NCBI GenBank assembly: GCA_045803545.1
Contig: JBJMOW010000005.1
Coordinates: 416,001-480,000, forward strand
Origin: Gemmatimonadaceae bacterium
GTDB lineage: Bacteria > Gemmatimonadota > Gemmatimonadetes > Gemmatimonadales > Gemmatimonadaceae
Direction of reading: 5' to 3'
DNA: 64,000 bases
Shown here: positions 42,432-60,614 of the stretch, one piece after another
Layout: each line of letters starts with the position of its first letter
Numbering within the stretch: position 1 is the first letter of the stretch
Program-made: the position numbers and the translations under genes
The notes under the pieces: model-generated
The model's input: the letters and a program-made list of their open reading frames with translations, nothing else
Database searches by the model: none
What the model was told of the DNA's origin: nothing

Positions 42432-42454
42432 TTCCAGCCGCGGAAGACGAGTAG

Positions 42455-43341: not shown

Positions 43342-43358
43342 GAGTCAGCCCTCCCGCG

Positions 43359-44105: not shown

Positions 44106-44130
44106 TGTTTACTCCGAAAAGGGGTTCGAA

Positions 44131-44838: not shown

Positions 44839-45012
44839 TCCTCACCTTGGGGGGAAGTTCGTCTACTTAAGCTGCCCTTAACCGGAGTCCGGCGGAATAC
44901 CCACAAGATTAAGAATCAATGAAATAGTATTAACAAAACTCTAAAGTTTCTTCGCGCCTTGCGCGCGCGTATTGATAGAAAAACGACCTCTCGACTAGTT
45001 CCAACTCTGCGA

Positions 45013-45699
45013 TCAGCGACCCGTGATCGTGAAGACGAACGGCATCTGCACCAGCTGCCGCACCTTTCTCCCGCCAATCTCCGCCGGCACGAACCGCATT
45101 CGCTTTAGAACGTCTCGAACCGACGCTTCGAAGAGCGCATTGTCCGATTGCACGAATCGAACAGAGTCGGACTCGACCAATCCTCGCTCGTCCACGGTGA
45201 ACTGCGCAACGACTCTCCCTTCGACTCCGGCGACGCGCAGGGCTTCCGGGTATCTCGGCACTGCCGCGCCGGAGAGTAGAGTGACCTGTCGCTCAACCTG
45301 ATCGGCGTTGTATGTGCCGGTCAAGCTTCTTGCGGCGGCACTGTGATCAGATCCGCCAACGATCGTTTGCACGTTCGTGAAGTCGGTCGGTGAAGTTGGA
45401 GAGGGCGGTATGAAGTCGAGCGGTGGCAGCTTCGGATCGATGACGATGGGAACGTACCGATTCGCGGGCAGAGGCAGCGTGCTGTTGTGGGCAGGCTGTC
45501 GCTGTCTTGATTCACTCGGCGGCGCCTTCGGTACATACGGGACGATGACGAGTCTCTGCACCGGCATAGGCCGTGGTCGCGATTGCGCCGTCGCATGAAC
45601 GGCAATGACGATGATCGCGATATGAGCGGTGACACTCGTAACAACGCCAACCGGTGAGCGGCTCCGGCGGCCTTTGGATTCCAGCAATCGATCGAGCAT
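45013..45699 (-). CDS. tonB: Energy transducer TonB (paralog)
   Basis: SVTAH TM, PRYPEAL...GRVVAQFTVDERG...RFVPA. Confidence 0.88.
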   Translation of the reverse strand: MLDRLLESKGRRSRSPVGVVTSVTAHIAIIVIAVHATAQSRPRPMPVQRLVIVPYVPKAPPSESRQRQPAHNSTLPLPANRYVPIVIDPKLPPLDFIPPSPTSPTDFTNVQTIVGGSDHSAAARSLTGTYNADQVERQVTLLSGAAVPRYPEALRVAGVEGRVVAQFTVDERGLVESDSVRFVQSDNALFEASVRDVLKRMRFVPAEIGGRKVRQLVQMPFVFTITGR

Positions 45700-45842
45700 C
45701 TCTCCTCACTATGAGCTTTGCGCTAAGCTCGGAGAGAAGGCGCCCGCATCCAATAACGGTGCGATTAGCTGTACATGATTTTCAATTAACGCTTTCGTTA
45801 TCGGACGGTTAAGACGCTCTGCCTCCCGCCTCCCGCCTCCCG

Positions 45843-47300
45843 CTACGCTTTCTGTCCATCCCCCGAAAGCGGCAGCGTAACCGTGAACAAGCTGCCGCGA
45901 CCGAGTCGCGACGACGCGGTGAGTGTTCCGCCGTGCGCTTGCGCAATCCACTGGCTGATCGCGAGCCCCAGTCCGAAGCCGCCGCGCTCCGACATGCGCG
46001 AGCGCACGCGGTCTGCCCGCCAGAAGCGCTCGAAGATGTGTGGGAAATCCGCGGCCGAAATCCCGATGCCGGTGTCGCGCACCGCGAACGTGACGTTGTC
46101 TGGATGCCTTCCAAGTCCGATGTCGACCTTGCCGCCGGCGGGCGTGTACTTGATCGCATTGGTGACAAGGTTCAAAAAAAGCTGGCGCAGTCGGGTGCGG
46201 TCGCCCATCACCATCGCGTCGGCGGTAAATGGCAGATTGACCGCGACACCCTGCGCCTCGCCCAGAATGAGCGCCGTCTCGTAAACCTCCTGCACCAGCG
46301 GCTGTAGTTCGACCGGCTCACGGTGCAGATCGAACCGTCCTTCGTCCGCGCGCGCCAGCGTCAGCAGGCTTTCCACGAGATCGGTCATTCTGCGCACCTC
46401 CTGCAACGCTTCCTCGAGCGCCACCAGTCGCTCGTTCTGACTCGACGACTCGGTCATCGCACGCTCGACATCCGCCCGCAGCACTGCAAGAGGCGTCTTG
46501 AGCTCGTGACTCGCGTCGGCGGTGAAGCGCCGCAGTCCGGCAAATGAGGTCTCCAGACGCCCGATCATCGCGTTGAGTGTGGTCACCATGTCCGAGAAGT
46601 CGCTCGTCTCTTCACTCAGCGCGAGCCTTCGATGAAGACTGCGTCCGTCAGTGATCGCCGCAACCTCGGTGGTGATCTCCTGCAGCTGACGCTGATTCTT
46701 GCCGAGTACGAGGAAGGCGCCGACACCGGCCACCGCAATTATCAGCGGGACGATGAGAAGCGCGTCGAACATGTACTCCTGGGGAACGGTGCTGGCGCGA
46801 GTCGCGACTGCGCCCGATGCGAGACGGCTCAACCCACCGGGCACGCCCTCCAGCGACTTGGAGACAAAGAGCAGCTTTTCCTGTAGAGAGTCGAGGCCGA
46901 AGATCAGTGCTTCGCCCGACTTGGGCAGGTCGGCGAGCTGGGTCTGCAGGGTGTTCATGTCGCTTCCCTGCAGTCGCATGACATCGGCGGAGCGGTATAC
47001 CGCCCTGCCTGCCGTATCGACCACTACTATATAACCAGGTATCGACTGGAGCCGGTCGACGATCCTCGGCGACAGCAGTGGAATGATTGCCGTGTCGTTT
47101 GCCGCCATCACCTTCTCGCCGGACTGCGCGGCGTCGGCGATCACACGAGCCGCGAGATCGCCCTGCGCTGCCGCGTATTGCGCGATGTCGTGGTAGACCG
47201 CGTTGTTCCTCGCCGCAAGCAACGCCAGGAAGAGCGTCATCGTTACCGCAGCGAGCCCGACGATGAACGCCGCGGTGAGTTTGACGCGTGTCGAGATCAT
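45843..47300 (-). CDS. Sensor histidine kinase (2 TM, HAMP, HisKA, HATPase)
   Basis: FTADASHELKTPL, NLVTNAIKYT, DTGIGI, GGFGLGL. Confidence 0.95.
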   Translation of the reverse strand: MISTRVKLTAAFIVGLAAVTMTLFLALLAARNNAVYHDIAQYAAAQGDLAARVIADAAQSGEKVMAANDTAIIPLLSPRIVDRLQSIPGYIVVVDTAGRAVYRSADVMRLQGSDMNTLQTQLADLPKSGEALIFGLDSLQEKLLFVSKSLEGVPGGLSRLASGAVATRASTVPQEYMFDALLIVPLIIAVAGVGAFLVLGKNQRQLQEITTEVAAITDGRSLHRRLALSEETSDFSDMVTTLNAMIGRLETSFAGLRRFTADASHELKTPLAVLRADVERAMTESSSQNERLVALEEALQEVRRMTDLVESLLTLARADEGRFDLHREPVELQPLVQEVYETALILGEAQGVAVNLPFTADAMVMGDRTRLRQLFLNLVTNAIKYTPAGGKVDIGLGRHPDNVTFAVRDTGIGISAADFPHIFERFWRADRVRSRMSERGGFGLGLAISQWIAQAHGGTLTASSRLGRGSLFTVTLPLSGDGQKA

Positions 47301-47303
47301 CGG

Positions 47304-47996
47304 CTATCCCGCCTTCGGAGCCGCGCTCTCCTCGCGGATAACGTAGCCGACGCCGCGAATAGTATGAATGAGCTTTCGATTGCTGTTAGCGTCGATCTTC
47401 TTGCGCAAATGGTTGATCACCACGTCCACGATATTGGTGCCTGGATCGAAGTGATACCCCCAGGCGTACTCGGTGATCAGCGTGCGGCTCATGACTCGGC
47501 CGGCATGCCTGATCAGATATTCAAGCACGGTGTATTCCTTCGGCGTGAGTTCGATCGGAATGCCACCTCGCGTGACTTCACGGGTATCGAGGTTCACAGA
47601 GAGGTCGGCGATCTTGAGCACCGGTGTCATCCGCGCGCGTGGCCGGCGCGAAAGGGCTTCGACGCGCGCCAACAGCTCTTCGAACGCAAATGGCTTGGTG
47701 ACGTAATCGTCGGCACCGGCGCGCAACGTCTCGACCTTTGAGTCGACCGCGTCTTGCGCGGTGAGGATGAGAACGGGGCGATCGAATCCGCGCGCGCGCA
47801 GATCATGCAGCACCTGAGCGCCGGATTTTCCGGGCAATCGCATGTCGAGCACGATCACGTCATACTCTTCGGCGATCGCGCGTGCTTCTCCATCGTCGCC
47901 GTTGGCGACGAGGTCGACACCCCATCGCTGCTCCTCAAAACCGCGCTTGACGAACTGACCGACGGTCGGATCGTCCTCGATCACAAGAATTCTCAT
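47304..47996 (-). CDS. OmpR-family response regulator
   Basis: LVIEDD, GADDYVTKPF, ELTPKE, IHTIRGVGY. Confidence 0.95.
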   Translation of the reverse strand: MRILVIEDDPTVGQFVKRGFEEQRWGVDLVANGDDGEARAIAEEYDVIVLDMRLPGKSGAQVLHDLRARGFDRPVLILTAQDAVDSKVETLRAGADDYVTKPFAFEELLARVEALSRRPRARMTPVLKIADLSVNLDTREVTRGGIPIELTPKEYTVLEYLIRHAGRVMSRTLITEYAWGYHFDPGTNIVDVVINHLRKKIDANSNRKLIHTIRGVGYVIREESAAPKAG

Positions 47997-48019
47997 GCAG
48001 CCCGGAAAGTTTATCGCAG

Positions 48020-48048
48020 AAAAAAGGCGGAAGTGCGCTACCGCCTTT
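48020..48048 (-). terminator. Intrinsic terminator after minor-pilin cluster B
   Basis: AAAGGCGG-10nt-CCGCCTTT followed by a T-tract on the minus strand. Confidence 0.65.
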
Positions 48049-48089
48049 CCGCCAAGATATACACCGGCTACCGACCCTTCAACGCGGCA

Positions 48090-49271
48090 TCAGCTTCCGG
48101 GAAGCTGTGCCCACCCTCCGCGCTGTGCGACAATTCTCTGGGATGGCTGTCGCAGAAGCGCCTGGTCGTAATGGAATTTGCCGCCGCCGCTGGAGTAGTA
48201 GTACTGCGCGACGATTGCCCCGTAGTAATCCCCGCCGCCGAGCTCGTATACAACGTGGTTTGGCGCATAGACGGTGTAGTAGCCCGCGAACGCACCCGAG
48301 GCGAGGGACCAATACGCCGGAGTAGCGGAAGTCCCGCACGACGAGAACGAAAGGTTGGCCGGCTTCTGCGAGGTGTTGATGACGGACCCACCACCCGCGT
48401 TGATCGAATCGCCAAGAAACACTGTCGCCTTCGGCGAGCCCGGGAACGAAAGCCTCGCGTTATTGGTCAGTACGATGACACGGAAATAATAGAGCGTATC
48501 GGTCAACGTCAGCGTCGTGTTTCCGTTGACGCTGAGCACTCCCGAAATAGCGTTGTAGCTGATCCCGCCGCCCGTAGGGACTTTGGCCGCCGGTGTGTAA
48601 CCGCCCGCGGGACATTGCGGAATGTCCATCGCCTGGCTCGGCGGCACACCAGAAGTGATCCCGCCCGTGGTGACGCCGGCTACTCCGACGTTCGGCGCTC
48701 CGCTCACGATCGCTTCGCCTTTCAGAGTTGTGTGATCGATGTTGAAGTCGCCGTTCGTACGCACGTTGGCGGCGCTGTCGATCGCGGTTGCGATGTACGC
48801 GCCCTTATCCGAATCGTAGGCGTCCAGCACGCCGCCGTTTGTCAGATACGTGGCTATTTCGCTGCGAATCGCGTATTTGAATTTCGCAACACCACCCACT
48901 GTGCCAACGATGGTCATCACGCCAGCCGTCGGATCCGTCCGCCTGCCCTGAACGACGACGTTGTATTCCTGAAGCGCGCCGGGGTCTACACGATAAATGA
49001 CAGCGCGATATGCGGCTCGGTTCGGCAGATTCGCCCAGCCAAGATCGAGACTGTCGCCCGGGTTGAGAGTCTGTACTGCCGCACTCGGCCATGCGCCATA
49101 CGTCTGTCGCAACCCCGCTTCTGCGGCATACATCGCGAGGGTGGCCTCGCGTGACGCGCGCGAAGCGCGACGCTCGTCAGAGGCGGTGGTCAACGCCGCA
49201 ACGACAACCACGCTCATGATCGTGATCGCAAAGATCACGGTAGGCAGAACGAACCCCCGGCGATTTTTCAT
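48090..49271 (-). CDS. PilX-like minor pilin with large beta-rich C-terminal domain (cluster B)
   Basis: RRG/FVLPTVIF (no Glu5), AMYAAEAGL. Confidence 0.82.
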   Translation of the reverse strand: MKNRRGFVLPTVIFAITIMSVVVVAALTTASDERRASRASREATLAMYAAEAGLRQTYGAWPSAAVQTLNPGDSLDLGWANLPNRAAYRAVIYRVDPGALQEYNVVVQGRRTDPTAGVMTIVGTVGGVAKFKYAIRSEIATYLTNGGVLDAYDSDKGAYIATAIDSAANVRTNGDFNIDHTTLKGEAIVSGAPNVGVAGVTTGGITSGVPPSQAMDIPQCPAGGYTPAAKVPTGGGISYNAISGVLSVNGNTTLTLTDTLYYFRVIVLTNNARLSFPGSPKATVFLGDSINAGGGSVINTSQKPANLSFSSCGTSATPAYWSLASGAFAGYYTVYAPNHVVYELGGGDYYGAIVAQYYYSSGGGKFHYDQALLRQPSQRIVAQRGGWAQLPGS

Positions 49272-49273
49272 TG

Positions 49274-50113
49274 TCAGCGCAGAGCGATTTTGGTGGTTAA
49301 CGAATCCCGTTGATACGTGTAACCGGTCCCGACATAGGTGGTCTTGTAGCTTTCCGTGCGAAGCGTAAAGGCGACCGCCTTTACTTTCAGCGGATCGACG
49401 GTGACCGCGCCCAGCGAATCGTAGTAGGCGAAAGCCAACCCGTTCGATGCCGGCGCGAGTAACGGCCCAGTCAACTGCTCATAGGTTGCTGCCGCCCCGA
49501 CTTTGCGACCAAGCCACCAGCGCGAATTCAACTGGTACTCGCCGTATTGCACCTTACGGAATCCGCGATAAGCGGCACCCACCACGATCCCCGATGTGTC
49601 CTTCTTGGATGTGACGGCAACTTCGATGACGACATCAGGCGGGCGGGCGCCTGGCCATGCGCAGGCAGTCACACCCATTGCCGCCGGCGTACCAACGGCA
49701 GTGACTTTCAGCGCTGTCCACTTGTCGCGACCCATTTGGAATATCAGCGCGCTGTCGTCAGCAGTCGCGAGAATGTTGCCCCCTGTCTTCCAGAGCCCGT
49801 AACGCGCGAGAGTGGGATGCTTTGCGCAAATCACGCCGAGTCCACGGGGCGAGCGCAGGGTAAGCGTGTTTGCTCCGATGACAGCGGGCGAGCTCTCCCC
49901 AAGGGCTGCCTGGCGCAGATCCCAGGAAAGGAGAGCCGCGGCCTCACGAGCGGTCTCGCGAACATCAATGATTTCCCGTTGCTTGCGATAGCCTCGACTC
50001 TGCACCGTCAACAGCTGGACGATGCTCCCCAGTACGATGAGGCCGATGACTGATGCTACCAGCAGCTCGATGAGTGTGAAGCCGCGCCGAGTCGTAAACT
50101 GTGACCGGCTCAT
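49274..50113 (-). CDS. PilW-like minor pilin (cluster B)
   Basis: RRG/FTLIELLV; start ATG 50113 by ATGA overlap. Confidence 0.85.
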   Translation of the reverse strand: MSRSQFTTRRGFTLIELLVASVIGLIVLGSIVQLLTVQSRGYRKQREIIDVRETAREAAALLSWDLRQAALGESSPAVIGANTLTLRSPRGLGVICAKHPTLARYGLWKTGGNILATADDSALIFQMGRDKWTALKVTAVGTPAAMGVTACAWPGARPPDVVIEVAVTSKKDTSGIVVGAAYRGFRKVQYGEYQLNSRWWLGRKVGAAATYEQLTGPLLAPASNGLAFAYYDSLGAVTVDPLKVKAVAFTLRTESYKTTYVGTGYTYQRDSLTTKIALR

Positions 50114-50514
50114 TGAACGCGAGCGTTGGCCAGGAAAAGACTGACCGTGTCCGGATACAGCACCGTAGTCTGCGCCTGTCCGCGTCGCGTAACCACCACG
50201 TTCACTTTTTGAGAATTGGCGTTCATCGTGGTGACGGTCCACGTCACCGCGCGACCACGTATAGTGGTCGACCCGTTTGATACGTTATTCCACCCTTTCG
50301 CCACGAGGCTGTCCACGACCTGCTGGACATCCGCTGAATATTGGAGATCCTGTCGCGCCTTCCCCATTTGGTTAAGGCCGAGCGATGCGGCACCGGCGAG
50401 GCTCATCATGGCGACCGCGAGCAGCGTTACCGAGACGATGATCTCCACAAGGGAGAAGCCGCGGCGAAGGTTTTTGGAATTTGATTCGGTTGCCACCATG
50501 CTCGCCGCGCTCAT
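50110..50514 (-). CDS. PilV-like minor pilin (cluster B)
   Basis: RRG/FSLVEIIV; start 50514 by ATGA overlap. Confidence 0.85.
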   Translation of the reverse strand: MSAASMVATESNSKNLRRGFSLVEIIVSVTLLAVAMMSLAGAASLGLNQMGKARQDLQYSADVQQVVDSLVAKGWNNVSNGSTTIRGRAVTWTVTTMNANSQKVNVVVTRRGQAQTTVLYPDTVSLFLANARVQ

Positions 50515-50978
50515 CGTAGCATCTTGCCGAGCGCAGTCGTCACGATCGTATCGGCCGTCAGGCCGTCGGCAAAAATCAACTGGGCATCCCCGGGCTGGCA
50601 GCTGCCAAGGGTTGACGGGATGCCGCGAGCATCGAAGCAAAGGAGGGCGCGAGAGCTGGTCATCGTCACCCCGTTGTCGCTGACGTCGCGAACATTGGCG
50701 ATGGTGGCTCGTTGATTGGATCCGTTCGCGCTTGTATCGACATCGACCCAAAAGCGCTTGTTCGGGGCGTCAATATGAAGCTGAGCGATGCGGCCGTATC
50801 TGAGCGCCGTTGCTCGCGTGAGGTTGTGAACGAGGACGAACTGATCTGCGGCGGACGACGACTGTCTGCTTTGGAGAGCGGCCGTGACATGCGGCCCGCT
50901 GATAGCGGCAAGGATGCCGAGTACCGCGATGGAGATTATTCCCTCGATCAGCGTGAAGCCCGCTCTCTGCGTCGTCAT
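50511..50978 (-). CDS. FimT/FimU/GspH-like minor pilin (cluster B)
   Basis: RAG/FTLIEGII, LCFDARGIP, TALGKM. Confidence 0.85.
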   Translation of the reverse strand: MTTQRAGFTLIEGIISIAVLGILAAISGPHVTAALQSRQSSSAADQFVLVHNLTRATALRYGRIAQLHIDAPNKRFWVDVDTSANGSNQRATIANVRDVSDNGVTMTSSRALLCFDARGIPSTLGSCQPGDAQLIFADGLTADTIVTTALGKMLR

Positions 50979-51062
50979 CCGACTGCTCGCCTCGCCTGCG
51001 TCATTCGGTATCAGGGCTCGCTACCATAGCAAACGGGCGTACTACGGCTGAGCTATATCTAC

Positions 51063-51091
51063 CGACTCTCCCTTAAGGCGAAACCGTCACA
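51063..51091 (-). promoter_or_regulatory. ECF-type promoter motif copy D, upstream of pilin cluster B
   Basis: TGTGAC-GGTTTCGCCTTAAGGGAG-AGTCG; same 18-nt spacing as the three other copies. Confidence 0.68.
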
Positions 51092-51203
51092 TGCCCGTTT
51101 ATATCTTCTAGCGGGGGCGATTGGCGATCCTACTTAAGTGCTTGTCACGTCCACAGTTCGGCCGCTGGCGAAACAGGAACCCGTGTTAAACAGACGTCAC
51201 AAC

Positions 51204-51232
51204 GAAGCCCGGGGACCGCCACCCCGGGCTTC
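51204..51232 (-). terminator. Hairpin/terminator after the DUF4382 gene
   Basis: GAAGCCCGGGG-7nt-CCCCGGGCTTC; weak U-tract. Confidence 0.6.
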
Positions 51233-51248
51233 TCCGGCCAAGGTGGCG

Positions 51249-52133
51249 TTAGGGCGCCACTACGATGACTTGGCTGTCGGTCTCAGTCCCAGTAGTAATG
51301 GTCAGGCCACCCGCGAGTAAAGCGGGCTTGAACCCCGACGCGGCGGGGGGCGTGGCTCTTAACACGTACGCACCCGGAAGTAGGAACGCGATACGAAAAT
51401 CGCCGTTGGCGTCGGTCGTAGTGCTGCGAACAATGTGCGTTGGGTCGGTATCGTTGAGCGACGCGCCGGCGGTTAGAACTTCGACCGTTGTCGCCGGTAC
51501 TACAGCGCCAGTCGGGCTGTTCGCCCGTACGGAGCCGCTCACGCTCCCGGTGATATCCTGTGCAACCGCGTGAATTACTGGCCTGAAGTTGAACCCGTTC
51601 TTCGCATTGTTTCCCCGCATCACGAAGCTTCGGCCGATATCGAAGTCGAGCGTCGTCACCGAGCCATTCTCGGTGAGATTAATCGGCTCATCGAGAATCA
51701 CTTTGATTCCGCTATGCCCTGCGCTCGGGAAGAAGACCTGCGGCTTCGTCCCATCCTTCAGTGTGAGACTCGATTTGTCTGTGTCGAGAATGAGCCGAAA
51801 GCTTTGGTAAGTTCCCGTCGGCAATGTGGCCGCGCCGAGGTTCACCGTTTTGCCGCTTCCCAGGTCGAGGAGGTCGATCAGTGCATTCGGCGTGGCGACC
51901 GTTGTCCATCCCTGACTTGATTCGTCGGTCGCGTCCTCGTCGGTCGAAGGAGCGCGCTTCGCATCAACGCGGACAACGTAGACATCTACGTTTGCGACGT
52001 CAGAGAATGGGAAAGGAGCGTCGGTGAGACGGACAGTCAAAAGACCTGTCCCTGTCCCAGCGGAGTCTGAGCAGCCTGCTGCGCCAAGCGCGCCAAGCGC
52101 GCAAGCTCCGAGAAGCCGGAAAGTTTTATTCAT
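51249..52133 (-). CDS. DUF4382-domain lipoprotein with a C-terminal carboxypeptidase-regulatory-like domain
   Basis: AAGC lipobox, LTVRLTDAP, LPTGTYQSFRL, LDFDIGRSF, FRPVI. Confidence 0.85.
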   Translation of the reverse strand: MNKTFRLLGACALGALGAAGCSDSAGTGTGLLTVRLTDAPFPFSDVANVDVYVVRVDAKRAPSTDEDATDESSQGWTTVATPNALIDLLDLGSGKTVNLGAATLPTGTYQSFRLILDTDKSSLTLKDGTKPQVFFPSAGHSGIKVILDEPINLTENGSVTTLDFDIGRSFVMRGNNAKNGFNFRPVIHAVAQDITGSVSGSVRANSPTGAVVPATTVEVLTAGASLNDTDPTHIVRSTTTDANGDFRIAFLLPGAYVLRATPPAASGFKPALLAGGLTITTGTETDSQVIVVAP

Positions 52134-52203
52134 CGTTCATGCCCCTGCATTCGTTTTGTCGGAAATGATTTCGGTTCCGCGCTTCGCGCGACCTTTATTC
52201 GCA

Positions 52204-52232
52204 TGACTCGACGAGTAGCGCGGAGAGTCACA
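52204..52232 (-). promoter_or_regulatory. ECF-type promoter motif copy B, upstream of the DUF4382 lipoprotein
   Basis: TGTGAC-TCTCCGCGCTACTCGTCG-AGTCA. Confidence 0.75.
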
Positions 52233-52260
52233 GCTCGTCCACAAAACGGTTGCTCTGGTG

Positions 52261-52292
52261 GAAAAGAAAAAGGGACAGCCTGCGCTGTCCCT
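52261..52292 (-). terminator. Intrinsic terminator
   Basis: AGGGACAGC-4nt-GCTGTCCCT followed by TTTTCTTTTC on the minus strand. Confidence 0.8.
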
Positions 52293-52297
52293 CTATC

Positions 52298-53023
52298 TCA
52301 CTTGTCAGTCTTCGGTGGTCGGTGACCCTGCCCGGGATTCGTCTTCTTTCCACCGTTCCCGGGCACGCCAGCTGGCGGCCCCGCCGTTGCAGGGCGACCG
52401 CTAACTCCCCTTCCCTGGTTACCCCGACCATTGCCATTCCCGTGATCGCGCCCGGCCGCAGCCTGCGCTGGCAGATCACTAGGCAACGTTTCCAGATCGG
52501 CGTCCGACGCCCTTTGCTGGAGCCTCGACATCACTCTCTGGAATGCTTCGCTTGCCGACACGCCGCGATCGGTGAGACTGCCAATCACGAACAAAGGCAC
52601 CGCGAGTGAGCGTCCGCTCGGAGCCGAGCGAGCGAGCGAGGAAACGGCCGCACCGTCAACTCCTTTGCGCATGACTTCAGCGGCTGCTTCGATCTCGTCA
52701 GCTTCTGGCGTCGAGCCTCTACCTGCAACCAGTGCAGTACGCGCCACCTCCATTCTCTCTACCTGATCGCTCACCGAACGCTCGATGTCCGCGGGTGCAA
52801 CGCCCTTGGCGGCGAACTTGAGAGCACGGTTCTCGAGCGCTTCCGCTGGGAGCTGGCGCGCACGCGCGTCGGCTATTCGCGCGAGTATGCGCGCGGCGAC
52901 GTCCGAGGGCAACACTTCGCGCAGGCGCGTCGAAGGATCCTTCGACGGGGTCTGCGCTTGCGCCACTGACGCAGCGAAAAGCCAGCTGAGAATGAAGAGC
53001 GCCGTAAGGCGCGATGTGGACAT
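52298..53023 (-). CDS. Secreted alpha-helical hypothetical protein with a Gly/Pro/Asn-rich tail
   Basis: GGGAG 9 nt before ATG 53023; signal peptide ending AQA; tail GNGNGRGNQGRG...GPPAGVPGNGG. Confidence 0.78.
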   Translation of the reverse strand: MSTSRLTALFILSWLFAASVAQAQTPSKDPSTRLREVLPSDVAARILARIADARARQLPAEALENRALKFAAKGVAPADIERSVSDQVERMEVARTALVAGRGSTPEADEIEAAAEVMRKGVDGAAVSSLARSAPSGRSLAVPLFVIGSLTDRGVSASEAFQRVMSRLQQRASDADLETLPSDLPAQAAAGRDHGNGNGRGNQGRGVSGRPATAGPPAGVPGNGGKKTNPGQGHRPPKTDK

Positions 53024-53102
53024 TGAGTACATCTCCCGAAGGAGAGATTTGCCGTTCATTATTTGCATTCTACGGTCTAATTCGTACCAGTTACGCCAAT
53101 AT

Positions 53103-53131
53103 TGACTCGTCAAGCGCCCGGCTGAGTCACA
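53103..53131 (-). promoter_or_regulatory. ECF-type promoter motif copy A
   Basis: TGTGAC-TCAGCCGGGCGCTTGACG-AGTCA. Confidence 0.75.
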
Positions 53132-53138
53132 TTCTGAC

Positions 53139-54272
53139 TCATTCGACCACCAGTAGACCCACTGAGCCCCCGAACTCGTCAAGCATTGAGAGCAGTCCGG
53201 GAGGAGCAGTCCACTTCCCACCGTTCATCCTCAGATCGATCTGGTACTTGCCCGGACGGAGAGCGCGACTCGCTATCCACCAACCGTTACCCGCAGGTGC
53301 CATTTGCAGTGGATCCCAATCAGTGAAATCACCCGCGACTTCAACGTTCTTTGCCAGGGGTGCCAGTACTTTGAACGTCACCACACCGCTGCGATTCTCG
53401 GTTTCGAAGGCGACAACTTTTGCCTCGAGGACCTCTGCGCTGTCGCTATTCGCTTGCCTGGTAAGCCTCGGCGGATGTGCCAGCCGAACGCCGAGTGAAA
53501 TAAAACGCCCGCCTGGAAATCCCTGCGTCGGATCGATCGGGTAGGTCCCTCCGCTCAGCACCACCGCCGCTCTCGAGGTCAACCACGAGGTAATGCTTGC
53601 ATTCCCCCAGATTCGAGTTGTGCCACCGAGCGCAGTCAACTGGTCGCCGACGCGCCCGCCAACAAGAGCGCTGAAATCAACCTTCTTGCGTTCCCCGGAG
53701 AGAAGAAGCTGCGCGTCAGCGTATCGCACTGAGTCGCCCATCGCTACGGGCGTAATGGTAAGAGTGGCAGTTGCCCGCTGAATGTTGCGCGACACTCCGG
53801 CCTCGCCCAACAGCACGTCTCTCGCCTGGCTGCCAAAAGTTGTTCGTCCGATGCCCGCGCCGATGAACCATTCAACCAGTCGATGCTCGGCGTGGAGTCT
53901 GGCGTTCAACAGCAATTCACCGGTACGTGAGCCATCGCGATGCGTGCTACCGCCGGCAAAACCGGCGAGCTCGCCGCCGAAGCGACTGACGGGCACGAAC
54001 ACTGACCCGCTAGCATGTCCCTGCAGGCTCCAGTCGCTTCCAAATTGAGAATAGGTAGTGCCTGCCTCCGCGATCTTGTTGCCCCAATCCGCGAATAACT
54101 GCGGACTAACGCTCGCGGCGACGCCGTTCAATGTATCGGCGTATTGGATTGCTACGCCTCCCAGATCGATGCTGCTCTCGATCCGCTGCGCGCCAGCCAC
54201 CTGCGCGCAAACGCAGACTCCGGAAAGGGCCGGCAGGAGTATTCGTAGCGAACCAGGCCGTAGGATTTTCAA
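53139..54272 (-). CDS. Secreted/outer-membrane beta-rich protein with a C-terminal glycogen-binding (CBM48/AMPK-beta-like) domain
   Basis: Signal peptide; amphipathic beta strands; VEVAGDFTDW...GWW...LRPGKYQ...NGGKW...DEFGG. Confidence 0.82.
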   Translation of the reverse strand: MKILRPGSLRILLPALSGVCVCAQVAGAQRIESSIDLGGVAIQYADTLNGVAASVSPQLFADWGNKIAEAGTTYSQFGSDWSLQGHASGSVFVPVSRFGGELAGFAGGSTHRDGSRTGELLLNARLHAEHRLVEWFIGAGIGRTTFGSQARDVLLGEAGVSRNIQRATATLTITPVAMGDSVRYADAQLLLSGERKKVDFSALVGGRVGDQLTALGGTTRIWGNASITSWLTSRAAVVLSGGTYPIDPTQGFPGGRFISLGVRLAHPPRLTRQANSDSAEVLEAKVVAFETENRSGVVTFKVLAPLAKNVEVAGDFTDWDPLQMAPAGNGWWIASRALRPGKYQIDLRMNGGKWTAPPGLLSMLDEFGGSVGLLVVE

Positions 54273-54309
54273 GGAACATAAATATCAGTTCCCTGAGAGT
54301 GCGTAGCTA

Positions 54310-54927
54310 CTAAGTCGTTGATTTTGCGTCAGACCCGACGCGAATTACCGAGCTCTCGGTGCCAAAGTCGTCGGAGCTCTTTACCGCGAGTGGGTCGATT
54401 ACCCAGCGCTTGCCGTCGACGATAAAAGCGTACTCATGACGACCCGGCGTAAGCGCGACCGAAACAGCCCAAACTCCCGGGGCACCAGACGGAGCAAGGT
54501 GCGTAGCACCCTTGGTCCACTCGTTGAAGTCCCCAACGAGCTGAACGCTCGATGCCTGACGGTCGACCAGAACGAAGCGAACCAGCTGCACGGTGTCGGT
54601 GGCCGGAACGGCGGCCGTACGCTCGGCGGGAGCTCGATTGCTTGACAGTCGCGCGCCGACTGCGATACCCGAAGCGGCCACGACGATCAATGCACTGGCG
54701 GCAATCGCGACTGCCGTGAGCGGTGTGATGTTGAATGCACGGCCTGTACGCCACCACGAGGCGTGCGTCAGCGCTGGATACAATGCAGGCCCTTCGACGT
54801 GCACGTTCTCCATGACGCGACGCTCGAACGACGGGTGCGCGCGCTCGACCGCGCGCAACGACACTGCTACGCGCTCGAGAAAAGCAGTGTCATCCATTTC
54901 GCTTCGACTGTCGTGGCGCTCAACCAT
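54310..54927 (-). CDS. Single-TM putative anti-sigma factor with a C-terminal CBM48/AMPK-beta-like domain
   Basis: 8-nt overlap with the ECF gene; short N-domain, TM AVAIAASALIVVAASGIAVG, then VQLVGDFNEW...GVW...LTPGRHEYAFIVDGKRWVIDP...DDFG. Confidence 0.82.
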   Translation of the reverse strand: MVERHDSRSEMDDTAFLERVAVSLRAVERAHPSFERRVMENVHVEGPALYPALTHASWWRTGRAFNITPLTAVAIAASALIVVAASGIAVGARLSSNRAPAERTAAVPATDTVQLVRFVLVDRQASSVQLVGDFNEWTKGATHLAPSGAPGVWAVSVALTPGRHEYAFIVDGKRWVIDPLAVKSSDDFGTESSVIRVGSDAKSTT

Positions 54928-55471
54928 TGTAGACTCCTTCCAACAAATCTCTCAGCGAATCTGCCGCACGCTTTACTCTCATCTTCAGGGCAGAAACGCT
55001 CGCTCCGGTCATCTCCGCAATTTCTTCGTACGTCAGCTCTTCGACGTGCTTGAGCAAGAAAGCTTCTCGCTGATCCATCGGCAGCATGCCAAGCGCGCGC
55101 TCTATGTGTCCGCCAAAATCACGATCGGCGGATTCGTCGGAGCCTGGTGCGATGGCCCGCTCGATCTCGAGCGTTGCCGAGACGAATCGCTGTTCACGAC
55201 GGTTTCGTCGAGAGGCGAATGTCCTGCACTCATTGACAACAATTTGATAGAGCCATCCACCAAAACGATCGCGATCACGGCAACTCCGCAGGTTACGAAA
55301 CGCGCGCATGAACGCCGACTGAAGGACGTCGTCCGCATCCACGCGTGAACCCAGCATGCGGACGGCGTACCGGACGCAGGTATCCTGATGGCGACGCACC
55401 AATAGCGAGAACGAATCGATGTTGCCCGCTATGACGGCTGCGATCAGGTCAGCGTCCGATGCCCCTGTCAC
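54920..55471 (-). CDS. ECF RNA polymerase sigma factor (probable leaderless GTG start at 55471; the ORF track extends to 55582)
   Basis: DADDVLQSAFMRAF, FGGWLYQIVVN, LPMDQREAFLLKHVEELTYEEIA, ALKMRVKRA. Confidence 0.93.
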   Translation of the reverse strand: MTGASDADLIAAVIAGNIDSFSLLVRRHQDTCVRYAVRMLGSRVDADDVLQSAFMRAFRNLRSCRDRDRFGGWLYQIVVNECRTFASRRNRREQRFVSATLEIERAIAPGSDESADRDFGGHIERALGMLPMDQREAFLLKHVEELTYEEIAEMTGASVSALKMRVKRAADSLRDLLEGVYNG

Positions 55472-55478
55472 GAGTGAA

Positions 55479-55507
55479 TGACTGCCGATTGGGCGCAAAT
55501 CGTCACA
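55479..55507 (-). promoter_or_regulatory. ECF-type promoter motif copy C (putative autoregulatory)
   Basis: TGTGAC-GATTTGCGCCCAATCGGC-AGTCA, ending 7 nt before the in-frame GTG of the sigma gene. Confidence 0.72.
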
Positions 55508-55598
55508 CAGCGGGATATCGAGCTGGCTAGACGCCTCGGAATCTTCCGACCCCAGGGGCCGGACGCGGGAAGGCTGCAACATCGCGGACGTATTCGAC

Positions 55599-56018
55599 TT
55601 AGCGAATGAAGCCGCGATCGGTTCTGACCTTGGCTGCCTGCTCTTTCTGCTTTTTGGCCAGCAGCGCCATTGCCGCTGAATCCGTGCGTGGCTTGACCAC
55701 TACTCCGCCAGAGGTGTCTTCGTTGCTGACGACGGTGTCTTTGCATTTGCGCTGGTCGAACACCGAGCGGGTCTCACAACCCGAGCGAAGCAGCTTCGAC
55801 GATTCAACGCCCGTCGTTTTCGCAGGCACGCATTTGCCGCGCGCTGCGTCAGCCGCAACGCACACGGTCTCCGCGCGCCCTTCCGGACGACGGGAGACCG
55901 AGTACATCAACGCGGCAAGCGATGACACTGCTACCGCGAGGAGCAGTAGCGCCAGCAGCAGCTCGCCAAACACGAAGCCAGGACGGCTCCGTGTGGCGAG
56001 TGCGCTTTCTGATTTCAT
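55599..56018 (-). CDS. Small atypical prepilin-like protein (cluster A)
   Basis: RPG/FVFGELLLALLLLAV; four Cys; TAATG coupling to the PilX-like gene. Confidence 0.6.
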   Translation of the reverse strand: MKSESALATRSRPGFVFGELLLALLLLAVAVSSLAALMYSVSRRPEGRAETVCVAADAARGKCVPAKTTGVESSKLLRSGCETRSVFDQRKCKDTVVSNEDTSGGVVVKPRTDSAAMALLAKKQKEQAAKVRTDRGFIR

Positions 56019-57103
56019 TAGTACTCCACCCAGTTGTCGACCCAGGTATTGCGCAGGGTGACAAGGGCACCAGCAGGCTTGTTAGCCTTCGCAACTTCGC
56101 ATGAATTGAAGTTGTAGCTCTTCGTACCGTTGGCAGTTGCCGGCGGTACAACCATACCGAGCTTGACGTTCAAGCCGCTGACCGTCGCGCCCGTGATACC
56201 GTTATTACCGTTCGACGTGATGTTACCGCCGACTAGCAGTACCCCTTTCCAGCCCACGCTTCCGTTCAGCGTCAGACTGCCTGTCACGATGAGCATTCCC
56301 TGACCGGAGACGGGGAGCGCAAAGTCTCCGTTCACACGAATGATCGGGTAGTACGAGGTGTCTGCAAACATTGCGGCGGTCGGGAAAGACCCACCCGGTA
56401 TCGTGATCGATGGGGTGATCGAGTTCTGATTCACGATTGAATTCCAATCGATGTGTACAGAATCGGATGTAACGGTATCGATCGGCGGATCTCCGACCGC
56501 GACACCCGTCTTGCCCGTGTATCCAGGATTGACAGGAACTACGACACCCGCAACCGTGTCCTCCTGACCGCAGAGATCGATTCCGCCAATGGTGCCGGCC
56601 GCGCCATTCTTCTGAATTCCAGAGAGCGCTGTCCAGCCGGCGAGCACCTGCATCGGGATTGGCTCCCAAAGCACGTACTGCGCAACCGTTCGCACCGCCT
56701 GGGGAGAACCGTTATAGGCATTGGTCGTTTCTAAACCTTTCGAACGCACCACGTACAGACCAGACTGGTTGTTAATCGGCGGACGAATCATCGTCAAAGA
56801 AACGTTTGCGATCCCACCGGGCACACTGATGGAAGCGCTGTCCTTGGCGGCTGGGACGTGCCCGCACGGCGTAGGATTGCACCGCAGGGTGCCCGCTGTG
56901 ATCAGCGAGTCTCTGGCAATGAGGTAAAGCTCGAGCCCCTGCTCGGCGATGCGGAAGGCGGAGACCTGGGATTTCTGGTCATCCACCGATCGACGCTCCG
57001 CGCTCACGATCGAGAAGCCACCAGCAACCATGATTGTCAGAACCATGATCACCAGTACGGCGGTCGGAATCGCAAATCCGCGGCGATTGTTGTTGGTCAG
57101 CAT
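56018..57103 (-). CDS. PilX-like minor pilin with a beta-rich C-terminal domain (cluster A)
   Basis: RRG/FAIPTAVLV (no Glu5), AFRIAEQGL, GQGMLIVTGSLTLNG. Confidence 0.82.
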   Translation of the reverse strand: MLTNNNRRGFAIPTAVLVIMVLTIMVAGGFSIVSAERRSVDDQKSQVSAFRIAEQGLELYLIARDSLITAGTLRCNPTPCGHVPAAKDSASISVPGGIANVSLTMIRPPINNQSGLYVVRSKGLETTNAYNGSPQAVRTVAQYVLWEPIPMQVLAGWTALSGIQKNGAAGTIGGIDLCGQEDTVAGVVVPVNPGYTGKTGVAVGDPPIDTVTSDSVHIDWNSIVNQNSITPSITIPGGSFPTAAMFADTSYYPIIRVNGDFALPVSGQGMLIVTGSLTLNGSVGWKGVLLVGGNITSNGNNGITGATVSGLNVKLGMVVPPATANGTKSYNFNSCEVAKANKPAGALVTLRNTWVDNWVEY

Positions 57104-57121
57104 ATCGATGAAGCCTCTCGG

Positions 57122-57985
57122 CTAGTTAGTGCGGTTCTTGAAGAACACCGCGGTTGTGAATGGAGCACTTTCAGAAGCGGACTGTCCCGGAGCAGCGTAT
57201 TCGCTCAGCCCATCGAGATGCAGCTCGAGCCCGCGAGTGTCCGCCAGATTTGCGGGCGGATTATCCTGCGCAGTCGCGCCACCTTGCAGGGTGAAGAAGC
57301 GCCACTTCGCCGTATTGGCGAAGGGGGCAACAAGCTCCTCGGTCGAATTTCCGTTCGGTCGAACGACGGTTCGCCACAAGCCGATCTTGCCTGGCACTGC
57401 AACTGATGCCTTCAGCTCATACTTGACTCTCTCATAGAGAAAAACCGGCGTCCCGAGACCCGCGTTGACTGGAAGTGTCGGCTGAACTCCGACGACCTTT
57501 CCGCCTGGTACGGATGTGATGCGGACGCCCGCGCATATGGCTGGATCGCCATTCTGTTGCTGAGTGCCACCGGCTTCGACGTAGGTGTATGCGCCAGTGG
57601 TGGCGCTGCGCCAGGCGTAGCCGTAGAACGACGAATTCGCATAGGTCGTCGAATCGACCGGCAACAGCGTTATATGCGTCAGCCCGCTGTTGTCAGCGCA
57701 TTCGACACCAATCGCGTAAGGAATACGAAGGTCGAGTGTTGTCGACGTCGCGGCGATGATCGCACCGGTAGCTTCGATCATTCGGAAATCGGATACGACG
57801 CGGTTTAGCGACGCGCGAGAAACGTTGCGCGCTGCGTTTGCCATACCCTGCCGGTCGAAGAAGCGACCCTGGACCGTCAACAATTTCGTTAGAGCTGCAC
57901 CGACGATCGCAAACAGAACGACGCCGACCAGCAGCTCGATCAGAGTGAAGCCGCGACGTGCGCGGCGAGCGATGTCTTTTCTCAT
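57122..57985 (-). CDS. PilW-like minor pilin (cluster A)
   Basis: RRG/FTLIELLV; start 57985 by ATGA overlap. Confidence 0.85.
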   Translation of the reverse strand: MRKDIARRARRGFTLIELLVGVVLFAIVGAALTKLLTVQGRFFDRQGMANAARNVSRASLNRVVSDFRMIEATGAIIAATSTTLDLRIPYAIGVECADNSGLTHITLLPVDSTTYANSSFYGYAWRSATTGAYTYVEAGGTQQQNGDPAICAGVRITSVPGGKVVGVQPTLPVNAGLGTPVFLYERVKYELKASVAVPGKIGLWRTVVRPNGNSTEELVAPFANTAKWRFFTLQGGATAQDNPPANLADTRGLELHLDGLSEYAAPGQSASESAPFTTAVFFKNRTN

Positions 57986-58434
57986 TGGCATACGGTGCAA
58001 AGCACCTTTGAAGTCCTGGCCTTGGTACGGGTGAAGCTCACCGTATCAGGCTTGAACCTGGCGTTGCTCGGAGTCAGAACGACCACGATCGTTTTCACTC
58101 TTTGCGCGATCGGCTCGCCGACGATGATCTTGCGAGTGTGCGCGTAGCTGCCGCCGGTCACGGTATATGTCGAAGTCCCGACCGCAATCGAGTCATAAGG
58201 AAGGCCCTCGAGTCGGTTCACCTCGAACATCAGCATGCCGTTCCTATAGGCGTTACCAGTGTTCTTGAGACCGCTCTGGGAGATCGAATACACGAGTCCC
58301 GCGAGCGAGGAAACCGCAACGCCGAGCAGCACCATTGCGACGATGACCTCGACGAGCGCGATACCCTTTCGATTGCCGTTATGCTTCACGGCCTTCTCGG
58401 GTATCCGATGAAACCTGCGGAGAGAGATTCGCAT
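57982..58434 (-). CDS. PilV-like minor pilin (cluster A)
   Basis: RKG/IALVEVIVAMVLL. Confidence 0.83.
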   Translation of the reverse strand: MRISLRRFHRIPEKAVKHNGNRKGIALVEVIVAMVLLGVAVSSLAGLVYSISQSGLKNTGNAYRNGMLMFEVNRLEGLPYDSIAVGTSTYTVTGGSYAHTRKIIVGEPIAQRVKTIVVVLTPSNARFKPDTVSFTRTKARTSKVLCTVCQ

Positions 58435-58898
58435 TAGTGTGACACCCTGATAAAGCCAGCAGTGCTGGCAGTGATTTGCTTCGAATAATCACCGTTGGCG
58501 AGACTGATCGTGATAGGCGCGGACGAAATGCCGCTCGGAAATACGTCGAGCGTCGTCGGGTTAAAAACCAGGCTCGACAAACGATATTCCGATGTGTCGC
58601 CATAGAACGTACGGATTCTGAGTACCGATCCTGTCTTGCGGTCGATGAACTGATAGCTGCGAGTATTTGCGTCGGCCTGAATGCGAACTGGCTCACGCTG
58701 ACGCGCCGCGACAGCGAAAGCGTTCTGCAGATCGGCCGTGATCACCATCGCGGCACGGTTAACTCGCTGATGTCGGACAATGCGCGAAACCGCGGGTCCC
58801 GCCATGCCAGCCAGAATGCCGAGAATGACGATGACGACGAGCAGTTCCATTACGGTAAAGCCGACGACAATAGCTTTGTGATTTTTGGCCATGATCAC
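58434..58898 (-). CDS. FimT/FimU-like minor pilin (cluster A)
   Basis: G/FTVMELLVVIVILGILAGMAGP, DVFPSG, STAGFIR. Confidence 0.85.
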   Translation of the reverse strand: MIMAKNHKAIVVGFTVMELLVVIVILGILAGMAGPAVSRIVRHQRVNRAAMVITADLQNAFAVAARQREPVRIQADANTRSYQFIDRKTGSVLRIRTFYGDTSEYRLSSLVFNPTTLDVFPSGISSAPITISLANGDYSKQITASTAGFIRVSH

Positions 58899-59064
58899 AC
58901 GCCTTTTTGACCAACGAGGATTAGGAGCGGAAGCAGGGATGCTTCAGCTCTTTTAGTGAAGACGAAATTCATTTAGGGATGGACGAGTACCACATATGCC
59001 AGCAACCCGAATGACTGGCGAATTTGGAGTTAAGCGCGCTTAAGCGCATTTAACCCACCTGTTT

Positions 59065-59544
59065 CTAGCTCAGCAGTTCCATTGCGGTGAAGATCTCTTC
59101 GTTCTCGCGCCGCTGACTGTTATTGGACTCTACGTGCGACCATCTAAGGCGGCCGTCACGGTCGATCAGGAAGTACGCCCGGTTGGAATAAAAACGGTCC
59201 TCGTTGAGAACCCCGTAGGCCCGCGAAATGTCCCGTTTGAAGTCACTGAGCAACTCGGTTTTCATCTGCAGTTTGTTCTTGAACTCGCGCAGGGATGGAA
59301 CCGCGTCGACCGATACTGGCAGTATCTCCACTCCCCGCCCGGTGAATCGATCGAAGTCCTCCGTAAAACAAGCGAGCTCCTTGGTACAGGTGCCGGTGAA
59401 CGCGAGAGGAAAGAATGCGAGGAGAACATTGCTCTTACCGCGAAAATCTGAAAGCGAGATGTCTTTTCCTGACGTTGAGGCAGCGGTGAACTCGGGAGCG
59501 AGGTCTCCGACCTGCGGCGAATTTTGCAGTTGAGCAACGGTCAT
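59065..59544 (-). CDS. Peroxiredoxin (AhpE/BCP-like)
   Basis: [21 protein letters not shown]. Confidence 0.9.
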
Positions 59545-59573
59545 GACAGAACGAGGAATTGCAGAGGGTGGAA

Positions 59574-60050
59574 ATGGAATCTGAGTTGACGGCTGACGCT
59601 AACGCAGCCATTCAGAAGCTCACGGTGCGCTGCTTGTTTTGCAATACTTGGAATCGCATCGACGCGGGCAAGGTGATCGATGGTCCAAAGTGCGGAAAGT
59701 GCGCGAAGCCGATTCTACTAGAGCGGCCCCTACAGCTGAATGACGAAACATTCTCACGCACCATTGCTGAAAGTGATATCCCGGTTGCGGTCGACTTTTA
59801 CGCCGATTGGTGCGGCCCGTGTCGAATGATGGCGCCTGCGGTCGACGCGCTAGCGGCGCATCTCCAGGGAAAGGCGCTGATCACCAAGCTCAATACCGAC
59901 CATTCCGCGCGCACCGCGGGAAGCTTCAATATCCGCGGCATCCCGACCACTATAGTATTCCGGGCCGGCAAGGAAGTGGCGCGACAATCGGGCGCCATGC
60001 CACTCGAGGGATTAAAACAGCTTATGGCGCGAGCCGGGGTCGCCGTTTAG
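59574..60050 (+). CDS. trxC: Thioredoxin 2 with N-terminal Zn finger
   Basis: CLFC...[20 protein letters not shown]. Confidence 0.9.
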
Positions 60051-60442
60051 GAAACCGTGGGGCCTTTGAGCACCGCTTCGACAGCGGCTGCGAGCTCCTG
60101 CGCCGAAAACGGCTTATTCAAAAAGTTTGCGCCAGCAGGAACGCCGGTCCGCGCATCCTGATCCGCGTATCCGGACATGAAAAGCGCGCGCAATCCCGGA
60201 CGCTGGACTGCGAGACGCTGAACGACTTCCGGGCCCCTCAGACCTGGCATAAACATGTCGGTGATTACCAGATCCAGCGGGCCGTCGTGTTTGTCCGCGA
60301 TGATAAGAGCCGCCTCGCCACTTTCCGCCTCCAACACCGCATAATTAGCCCGTTTGAGGATTCTCAGAACGATGCTCCGCACTGCTGGCTCGTCATCGAC
60401 GAGCAGGATGGTTCGCTTGTTGTTGGCCTCGGCGCCGTCCAT
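60047..60442 (-). CDS. Stand-alone receiver-domain response regulator
   Basis: ILLVDDE, LVITDMFMP, FMSGY, FLNKPF. Confidence 0.9.
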   Translation of the reverse strand: MDGAEANNKRTILLVDDEPAVRSIVLRILKRANYAVLEAESGEAALIIADKHDGPLDLVITDMFMPGLRGPEVVQRLAVQRPGLRALFMSGYADQDARTGVPAGANFLNKPFSAQELAAAVEAVLKGPTVS

Positions 60443-60614
60443 TGGTCATGACCGCAGTTAGACGTTGAGCAAGCTATGGCGCCGTGCACACGTTGTGTAG
60501 AGGAAAGCCATGCACCAGGTGGCCTCAAGCGCTCAAAGATGGCGCGGCTGTCCGACGAACTGTATTGCCCGCCCCCTTGTTTCGCGATCGTTTCGCCAGT
60601 TCATGGCAGGTTGT

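Follow-up and report, generated by a model that had tools for sequence, protein, structure and literature searches.

The FecI/FecR/FecA system (ECF243) joins an extracytoplasmic function (ECF) sigma factor to a membrane anti-sigma factor and a 22-stranded TonB-dependent receptor with a plug and an N-terminal signalling domain. Members of another group, ECF278s1, come from Desulfovibrio and Syntrophobacter and have as +1 gene an anti-sigma factor with one membrane helix and an AMPK glycogen recognition site. Their predicted promoter has GTGAC at -35 and GTATA at -10, and the group's description proposes glycogen sensing as a hypothesis (Casas-Pastor et al. 2021, PMC7826278). For ECF promoters, Todor et al. 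tie positions of the sigma factor to bases of the -35 and -10 elements (bioRxiv 2020.06.23.168245). Among outer-membrane barrels, CymA is described as a cyclodextrin channel (PMC5768706). Here we analysed a 64,000-nt stretch of Gemmatimonadaceae DNA (GCA_045803545.1, contig JBJMOW010000005.1, positions 416,001 to 480,000 of the forward strand; hereafter the window). It encodes an ECF sigma factor, a predicted anti-sigma factor and a predicted outer-membrane barrel protein, the latter two each with a CBM48 domain, followed by genes for a secreted protein, a DUF4382 protein and a set of minor pilins (cluster B, first gene pilB1). A sequence-only reading of the window had proposed that four copies of TGTGAC-N18-AGTC(A/G), here P1 to P4, outline the regulon of this sigma factor. 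Comparison with relatives leads us to infer, with a rough probability of 0.88, that the four sites are promoters read by this ECF sigma factor, at which RNA polymerase would start.

Motif conservation before the proposed target genes

The pattern TGTGAC-N18-AGTCR matches the window exactly four times, always on the minus strand (P1 to P4, Table 1). The chance expectation is 0.04 and none of 100 shuffles gave four matches, which confirms the spaced copies of the sequence-only reading. Its extended form, TGTGACTC-N14-CGAGTCA, is likewise present in the copies at 52204 and 53103. The genome-wide scan that it suggested (3.70 Mb, 6 contigs) returned eight matches with spacer 18 and 0-3 for each of the 16 other spacers between 10 and 26; by chance, any one spacer should give about 1.5 matches per genome. 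Four of the eight are the window copies, and leaving the last motif base free adds a ninth, at C4:636246. Of the five genome matches outside the window, two are internal to long open reading frames (ORFs), two are intergenic and the remaining one falls on an ORF boundary.

We profiled the motif in 69 loci (L051-L119), using genes with at least 300 nt of upstream sequence and counting GTGAC-N17/18-AGTC on the sense strand. It precedes the sigma gene in 63/64 loci, the secreted protein gene in 56/59, the DUF4382 gene in 33/37 and pilB1 in 11/11, and it is absent before the anti-sigma gene (0/64), the barrel gene (0/66) and pilA1 (0/4). Antisense matches before sigma (14/64), DUF4382 (7/37) and pilB1 (7/11) are the back-to-back partners of divergent gene arrangements; the secreted protein gene has none (0/59). 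All sites point towards their gene in the relatives, as they had been seen to do in the window. Neither background frequency nor random orientation, two of the outcomes that the first reading named as refuting, was found: spacer 18 is in excess and the orientation is sense.

A separate search detected pilB1 in 31 of 109 genus genomes. It returned 30 pilB1 loci, one of which is the window itself and two of which come without upstream sequence. The motif is present in 26 of the other 27, which overlap the loci of the count above, and the 27th has GGTC in place of AGTC. Some of these pilB1 genes follow DUF4382 or the secreted protein gene, others are divergent from sigma, and others follow pilin cluster A on a contig that has no sigma. 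The motif therefore accompanies pilB1 across at least four gene arrangements, some of them on contigs without sigma. Because pilB1 keeps the motif in 26/27 loci across arrangements, P4 is well supported; its placement before cluster B had been the least obvious of the early claims. The motif moves with its target genes when these are rearranged or unlinked.

The pilB1 leaders also have features of their own. A region of about 140 nt is conserved (L276, L277, L279, L281-L285, L288), in which CCTCC could pair with a GAGGA ribosome site, and many pilB leaders have a short AGC(A/T)(C/G)AGC element where they are predicted to begin, as at window positions 51045-51055. These features suggest possible translational control.

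Both boxes are conserved in dozens of relatives and the spacer sequence has diverged. Among 161 distinct sites from relatives, the base 3' of AGTC is A in 41%, T in 45% and G in 4%, and the T before GTGAC is kept in 77%. The AGTC box as first described thus stands and its final A/G does not, so (T)GTGAC-N18-AGTCWW describes the motif better. We consider it very likely that (T)GTGAC and AGTC are the -35 and -10 elements of promoters of the adjacent ECF sigma factor. A sigma-70 scan gave four sites against 3.8 in shuffles, none of them at the motif copies, and an Rfam search of 44000-60500 gave zero matches.

The fifth site is distal. It is an intergenic copy at G000:C4:636246-636273 (G000 is this genome), before a PAS gene and a DinB-family gene. 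The motif lies 51-58 nt upstream of the PAS gene in 9/9 orthologs, this genome included and one further ortholog with too short a sequence left out, and before 0/19 PAS paralogs. The PAS protein (region C4:636246-637075, L151) has a weak HisKA match whose HisKA part is degenerate. In two of the nine genomes with the PAS site, whose completeness is 69% and 72%, no match to the anti-sigma factor was found. In a position weight matrix scan of the genome and searches with relaxed patterns, only C4:636246 was shown to be conserved as an additional site. Of 20 extra sites examined in nine relatives, six are the PAS site, one is the pilin-B site and 13 each fall at a different place. The four sites of the first reading hold, and its list of genes lacked the anti-sigma and barrel genes of the sigma operon and the distal PAS/DinB pair.

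Five intergenic sites of this genome with GTGAC-N17-AGTC (one with N18), at C4:1289780(-), C5:195702(-), C5:129925(-), C6:301810(-) and C2:122219(-), could serve this or a different ECF sigma factor as promoters.

Start of the sigma gene

The sigma factor (183 aa) has sigma2 and sigma4 domains only and no sigma3, as in the definition of ECF (group 4) sigma factors. We compared the best 80 of 88 loci from relatives, of which 70 have an adjacent sigma gene with enough upstream sequence: 66 of Gemmatimonadota type (one titled unidentified) and four from Acetothermia/Thermotogae. Loci without an adjacent sigma gene (L124-L130) were dropped, and L070, L119 (contig without sigma) and L087 (near a contig end) were removed from the sigma count. 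One of the best 80 loci may come from genome G070.

Upstream of the 66 Gemmatimonadota-type genes we found GTGAC-N18-AGTC in 60, the same boxes with N17 in five and AGTT in one. This comparison of orthologous sigma genes, which had been put forward as a check, thus gives GTGAC-N17/18-AGTC in 65/66 loci, and the presence of the motif before sigma in nearly all relatives supports the proposed autoregulation. In 55 of the 60 loci the distance from AGTC to an in-frame ATG or GTG is exactly 8 nt, and the base before this codon is always a pyrimidine (T in 50, C in 5). An in-frame stop occurs no more than 111 nt upstream of this start in 33/55 loci, so the longer ORF is not the gene that is conserved, and the sigma gene starts at GTG 55471 and not at ATG 55582 of the ORF list. 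A core resembling a Shine-Dalgarno sequence precedes sigma in 12/65 loci, the secreted protein gene in 44/56 and the DUF4382 gene in 31/33.

A pyrimidine-purine pair at -1 or +1, counted from the flipped -10 base, is given as the ECF start signature (Todor et al. 2020, PMC7776599 / bioRxiv 2020.06.23.168245). The eighth base after the C of AGTC is the first of the two start positions given there. Because the start codon sits at the expected distance of a transcription start after AGTC, the mRNA of the sigma, anti-sigma and barrel genes is likely to be leaderless and autoregulated, as far as sequence comparison can tell. On this geometry, transcription would start at 55471 (the G of GTG) for P1 and at about 53095, 52196 and 51055 for P2, P3 and P4.

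Promoter variants and motif counts

The anti-sigma gene was found in 27 of 60 genus genomes. Genomes with it carry 5.9 motif copies on average (n=26) against 3.0 in those without (n=32), and a reversed-pattern control gave 2.9 and 3.2 per genome. The excess is about three per genome, and the regulon is therefore small and mostly local. Genomes G070 and G055 were left out of these counts and of the PAS counts; they enter other tallies, and none of our claims rests on them.

About 28 sigma4 matches in the genome exceed the cut-off, and related sigma factors with other promoters allow a comparison. Paralogous loci with a CBM48 anti-sigma gene (L047-L050) have back-to-back GTTAC-N17-NNTC, and their sigma factors have H or Y in place of K167. 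A sister family (f3, five loci) has GTGAC-N17-GGTC and R in place of E81. Four sigma factors of another phylum (L218, L219, L225, L227) share the K-M-R recognition helix and have GTGAC-N17/18 with GTA at -10. The Acetothermia/Thermotogae records (L120-L123) combine an ECF sigma factor and a CBM48 anti-sigma factor with TGAAAC..GTGTATA upstream, a different recognition helix and no GTGAC motif. Promoter variants thus change together with sigma residues across paralogs. The variable residues K167 and E81 presumably lie at or beside the positions tied to -35 and -10 bases, by our mapping to RpoE numbering. Orientation, co-movement with targets, start geometry, the motif excess in genomes with the anti-sigma gene and this covariation together support the assignment of the motif to this sigma factor.

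In three of the four loci from the other phylum, a second small CBM48 gene lies upstream of sigma.

Predicted sensor and model

The anti-sigma gene overlaps the sigma stop codon. Its product has a predicted N-terminal sigma-binding part, a hydrophobic 19-mer at residues 72-90 (best window only) and a C-terminal AMPK-type CBM48 domain, which probably faces the periplasm, judging from the topology. When sigma was modelled together with residues 1-62 of the anti-sigma factor, the predicted complex scored 0.80 and the best of three controls 0.00, with contact agreement of at least 92% and partner pLDDT of at least 74. The mark set for this score was reached by 116/157 solved complexes and 2/215 mismatched pairs.

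The best Protein Data Bank matches of the C-terminal domain are AMPK beta carbohydrate modules. In AMPK, glycogen is bound by W100, K126, W133, L146 and T148, and mutation of K126 lowered the binding (PMC2642990). The anti-sigma domain has W, A, W, F and T at these positions.

The barrel protein was modelled with a signal helix, 14 strands, a linker and the CBM48 domain (pLDDT 85.6). Of 151 Gemmatimonadota genomes, 81 contain a match to this protein. Its nearest folds, which are tied, are CymA (4d5b; Z 18.2, rmsd 3.8, 236 aligned) and OmpG (2f1c; Z 17.7, rmsd 4.2, 224 aligned). An outer-membrane barrel with an even number of strands has both ends in the periplasm, so this CBM48 domain would be periplasmic too. 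At the AMPK positions it keeps both stacking tryptophans and has F for L.

We propose that the CBM48 membrane anti-sigma factor would hold sigma inactive at the inner membrane until a periplasmic cue acts on its CBM48 domain, the barrel protein serving either as a channel or as a partner; release might come about by proteolysis or a conformational change. Released sigma would amplify itself through the leaderless P1 operon of sigma, anti-sigma and barrel genes, and would drive P2 to P4 (secreted protein, DUF4382 lipoprotein, pilin cluster B) and the distal PAS/DinB pair. The cell would then make the secreted helical protein, the lipoprotein and one of three minor-pilin sets, giving a changed pilus tip. 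For a changed pilus tip and surface layer as the output we see even odds. An alpha-glucan entering or held at the barrel is our tentative candidate for the cue, somewhat short of an even chance.

The CBM48-like domains could instead be protein-contact modules, with the anti-sigma factor responding to the barrel, to the secreted protein or to stress in the envelope or in pilus assembly rather than to a sugar, and we hold this to be close to an even bet. Two like domains on two membranes invite direct contact, and the regulon contains envelope proteins and pilins and no glycosidase or sugar transporter. The anti-sigma factor has Ala at the K126 position in 52/52 sequences, so that the glycogen site is only partly kept, and the barrel domain has lost T148 (G at this position in 74/75). 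Among the neighbours in 79 loci, neither an enzyme nor a transporter for alpha-glucan is constant (a MalK-type ATPase cluster occurs in 5/79, GH1 in 4/79), and the single GH13 match of the genome is away from the locus; both count against a glucan cue. However, the stacking tryptophans are invariant in both proteins (52/52 and 75/75), the anti-sigma factor keeps T148 in 47/52, and the nearest folds of the barrel include a cyclodextrin channel, at an identity to CymA and OmpG of 3-7%, where a common fold shows no function. The combined idea, a TonB-independent trans-envelope module in which a CymA-like channel with a periplasmic CBM48 hands alpha-glucan (or contact) to the CBM48 anti-sigma factor and so frees the leaderless, autoregulated sigma to swap the pilus tip and surface proteins, is speculative and on balance doubtful. 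If true, a polysaccharide cue would reprogramme adhesion or motility.

Alternative explanations of the sites

The sites could be promoters read mainly by a core paralog ECF sigma factor (G000:C2:101485-102210), which is sister to this sigma clade (support 100/98; the tree excludes L050 and L234) and shares the K-M-R recognition triplet. However, it does not track the motif, because it is present in 48/60 genus genomes, including most of those without the anti-sigma gene, where the motif is at background. It also carries H where this sigma factor has K167, and GTGAC-N17/18-AGTC occurs upstream of it in 0/12 loci, which have a different conserved motif. We consider this reading highly improbable. 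The core sister (L246-L258) is 87-97% identical across the genus, with its own motif of about GTTGC-N17-CGTC and a small partner gene without CBM48.

The first reading had itself raised a repressor operator, since TGACTC...GAGTCA is an inverted repeat; two window copies form TGACTC-N14-GAGTCA, and a dimeric repressor or activator could bind such a dyad (TGAC...GTCA). Every site has a self-complementary GAC/GTC core, and 67/161 show TGAC..GTCA. Beyond the 3-bp core, however, the arms are not complementary (0.05-0.42 per pair, 161 sites), and the full dyad is found in 1/161, which makes an operator very unlikely. The strict orientation towards the gene, with back-to-back copies between divergent genes, also argues against it, and among the conserved neighbours (16 checked against Pfam) sigma alone stood out as a DNA-binding regulator.

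Chance, to which the matches expected at any spacer and those inside coding genes might point, is a negligible explanation, refuted for the four window sites by the low expectation in the window and by conserved boxes around diverged spacers in dozens of relatives.

Several observations weigh against promoters read by this sigma factor. The relatives are kin, so their counts are not independent, and the comparison of motif copies per genome overstates for the same reason. P4 in this genome ends in AGTCGG and fits the family consensus less well than the other three (18.6 versus 21.1-24.5), and the highest score in the genome, 27.2, belongs to a site within a coding gene. In another family (L043:3080-3125, L045:2963-3005) the ATG lies just 2 nt past the -10 box, unfit for a leaderless start. 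The passing score of the sigma/anti-sigma complex may stem from likeness to solved pairs. No transcription start was seen in soil metatranscriptomes: eight runs contained 5-12% of the sequence words, and the four that were compared are assembled contigs, which are unable to show starts or strand.

Locus layout

On the minus strand, the order is pilin cluster A, P1, sigma, anti-sigma, barrel, P2, secreted protein, terminator, P3, DUF4382, hairpin, P4 and pilin cluster B (Table 1). The first reading placed a terminator before P3 and a hairpin before P4. The former is indeed strong; the latter is weaker and was not listed by the terminator scan.

Table 1 Features of the locus on the minus strand of the window.
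Feature	Coordinates	Strand	Basis or remark
P1, predicted autoregulatory promoter	55479..55507	-	AGTC ends 8 nt before sigma GTG
ECF sigma factor, 183 aa, GTG start	54920..55471	-	PF04542, PF08281, PF04545; conserved start
Predicted anti-sigma factor, 205 aa	54310..54927	-	PF16561 E 2.9e-10, PF02922; hydrophobic helix ~72-90
Predicted 14-stranded outer-membrane beta-barrel with C-terminal CBM48, 377 aa	53139..54272	-	Structure model; no own promoter site
P2, predicted promoter of secreted protein	53103..53131	-	Motif; 56/59 relatives
Secreted all-helical protein, no known family, 241 aa, Gly/Pro-rich tail	52298..53023	-	Alternative ATG 53059
Intrinsic-terminator-like hairpin with U tail	52269..52294	-	Terminator scan; z -5.98
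P3, predicted promoter of DUF4382 gene	52204..52232	-	Motif; 33/37 relatives
DUF4382 + CarboxypepD_reg protein, 294 aa, likely lipoprotein (Cys21)	51249..52133	-	Pfam; lipobox-like Cys in 29/33 homologs
GC-rich hairpin 3' of DUF4382, weak U tail	51204..51232	-	z -2.16
P4, predicted promoter of minor-pilin cluster B	51063..51091	-	Motif; 26/27 relatives
GspH/FimT-like minor pilin (pilB1)	50511..50978	-	N_methyl, GspH
Minor pilin, PilV-like label inferred from position and size	50110..50511	-	N_methyl
Minor pilin, PilW-like label inferred from position and size	49274..50110	-	N_methyl
PilX-like minor pilin, C-terminal DUF7305	48090..49271	-	PilX_N, DUF7305
Minor-pilin cluster A, no motif upstream, apparently outside the regulon	55599..58898	-	0/4

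Cluster B consists of four class III signal pilins in FimT/PilV/PilW/PilX order (N_methyl in three, GspH, PilX_N) and is one of three minor-pilin clusters in the genome. No PilY1-like gene adjoins it by Pfam at this locus, a genome-wide search for PilY1 not having been made. The secreted protein has no Pfam family; its helical model is confident, without a Foldseek match at E<=0.001, and its look-alikes in the ESM Atlas are only unnamed Gemmatimonadota clusters. No solved relative of DUF4382 was found.

Other genes were noted around the system. In 10-18 loci (L057, L062, L074, L079, L086 and others) sigma adjoins genes that resemble a chaperone-usher set and lack the motif; they encode a PapD_N chaperone, a 951-aa protein and a small secreted protein. 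About eleven dispersed genes like those of major pilins, with near-identical N-termini, occur in the genome. A TonB/ExbB/ExbD cluster with three TonB-like genes occupies window positions 41691-45699, and a two-component pair (45843-47996) lies between it and pilin cluster B, directly downstream of the latter.

Comparison with known systems

A literature search, with most subscription journals outside its scope, turned up no description of this promoter, regulon or barrel, and a single archaeal paper on DUF4382. The supplementary tables of the ECF classification and the datasets of Todor et al., outside this comparison, may already classify these sigma factors. The locus defines a predicted promoter, with a regulon of five sites, in an ECF clade whose phylum is common and has hardly been cultured. 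A single switch would thereby link one of three minor-pilin clusters with three uncharacterised families (barrel-CBM48, secreted helical protein, DUF4382). The natural variation in promoters (GTGAC/GTTAC, AGTC/GGTC/GTA) and the matching sigma residues form a test set for the ECF recognition code.

The closest known group is ECF278. Like ECF278s1 as described, this locus has a one-helix anti-sigma factor as +1 gene, an AMPK-type CBM48 and GTGAC at -35, but its -10 element is AGTC (65/66 loci) and not GTATA, and its hosts are Gemmatimonadota; the text on the ECF278 group names no conserved context, regulon, barrel or pilins (PMC7826278). Four stand-in sigma factors with GTGAC..GTA (L218, L219, L225, L227), which are candidate ECF278 members by their match to the description of ECF278s1, fall apart from the Gemmatimonadota clade, with deep nodes open. 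Because the -10 element and host range differ and the stand-ins do not group with it, we do not file this sigma factor in ECF278, judging by the description of ECF278s1 and the stand-ins. The proposal of a glycogen-sensing anti-sigma factor in ECF278 becomes directly testable here, with short reporters and two small domains.

The local autoregulated ECF regulons of Todor et al. are alike in having few promoters near sigma, a patchy presence in the genus and a pyrimidine-purine start, and in having been found by phylogenetic footprinting; the main text of that study is without mention of Gemmatimonadota (PMC7776599). Relative to the sister f3 clade, the spacer of this locus has one extra base.

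As in FecIRA, a sigma factor, a membrane anti-sigma factor and an outer-membrane protein share one operon, suggesting a relay across the envelope. Unlike FecA, the barrel is modelled with 14 strands and no plug and has a C-terminal CBM48, the anti-sigma factor has CBM48 in place of the FecR domain, and this sigma factor has a conserved autoregulatory promoter. With CymA and OmpG the modelled barrel shares the 14-stranded monomeric outer-membrane fold but not the fusion to a C-terminal CBM48, and it is a candidate channel.

The minor-pilin/PilY1 sets of Myxococcus xanthus resemble this system in their several clusters per genome and in the regulated choice of pilus tip. The phosphorelay HsfBA is reported as their regulator, whereas an ECF sigma factor would act here, and they include PilY1, whereas the PilX-like subunit of cluster B bears a large DUF7305 instead (PMC7541494, PMC9109919). 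Compared with these systems, the regulatory logic of the locus is standard and its parts are new.

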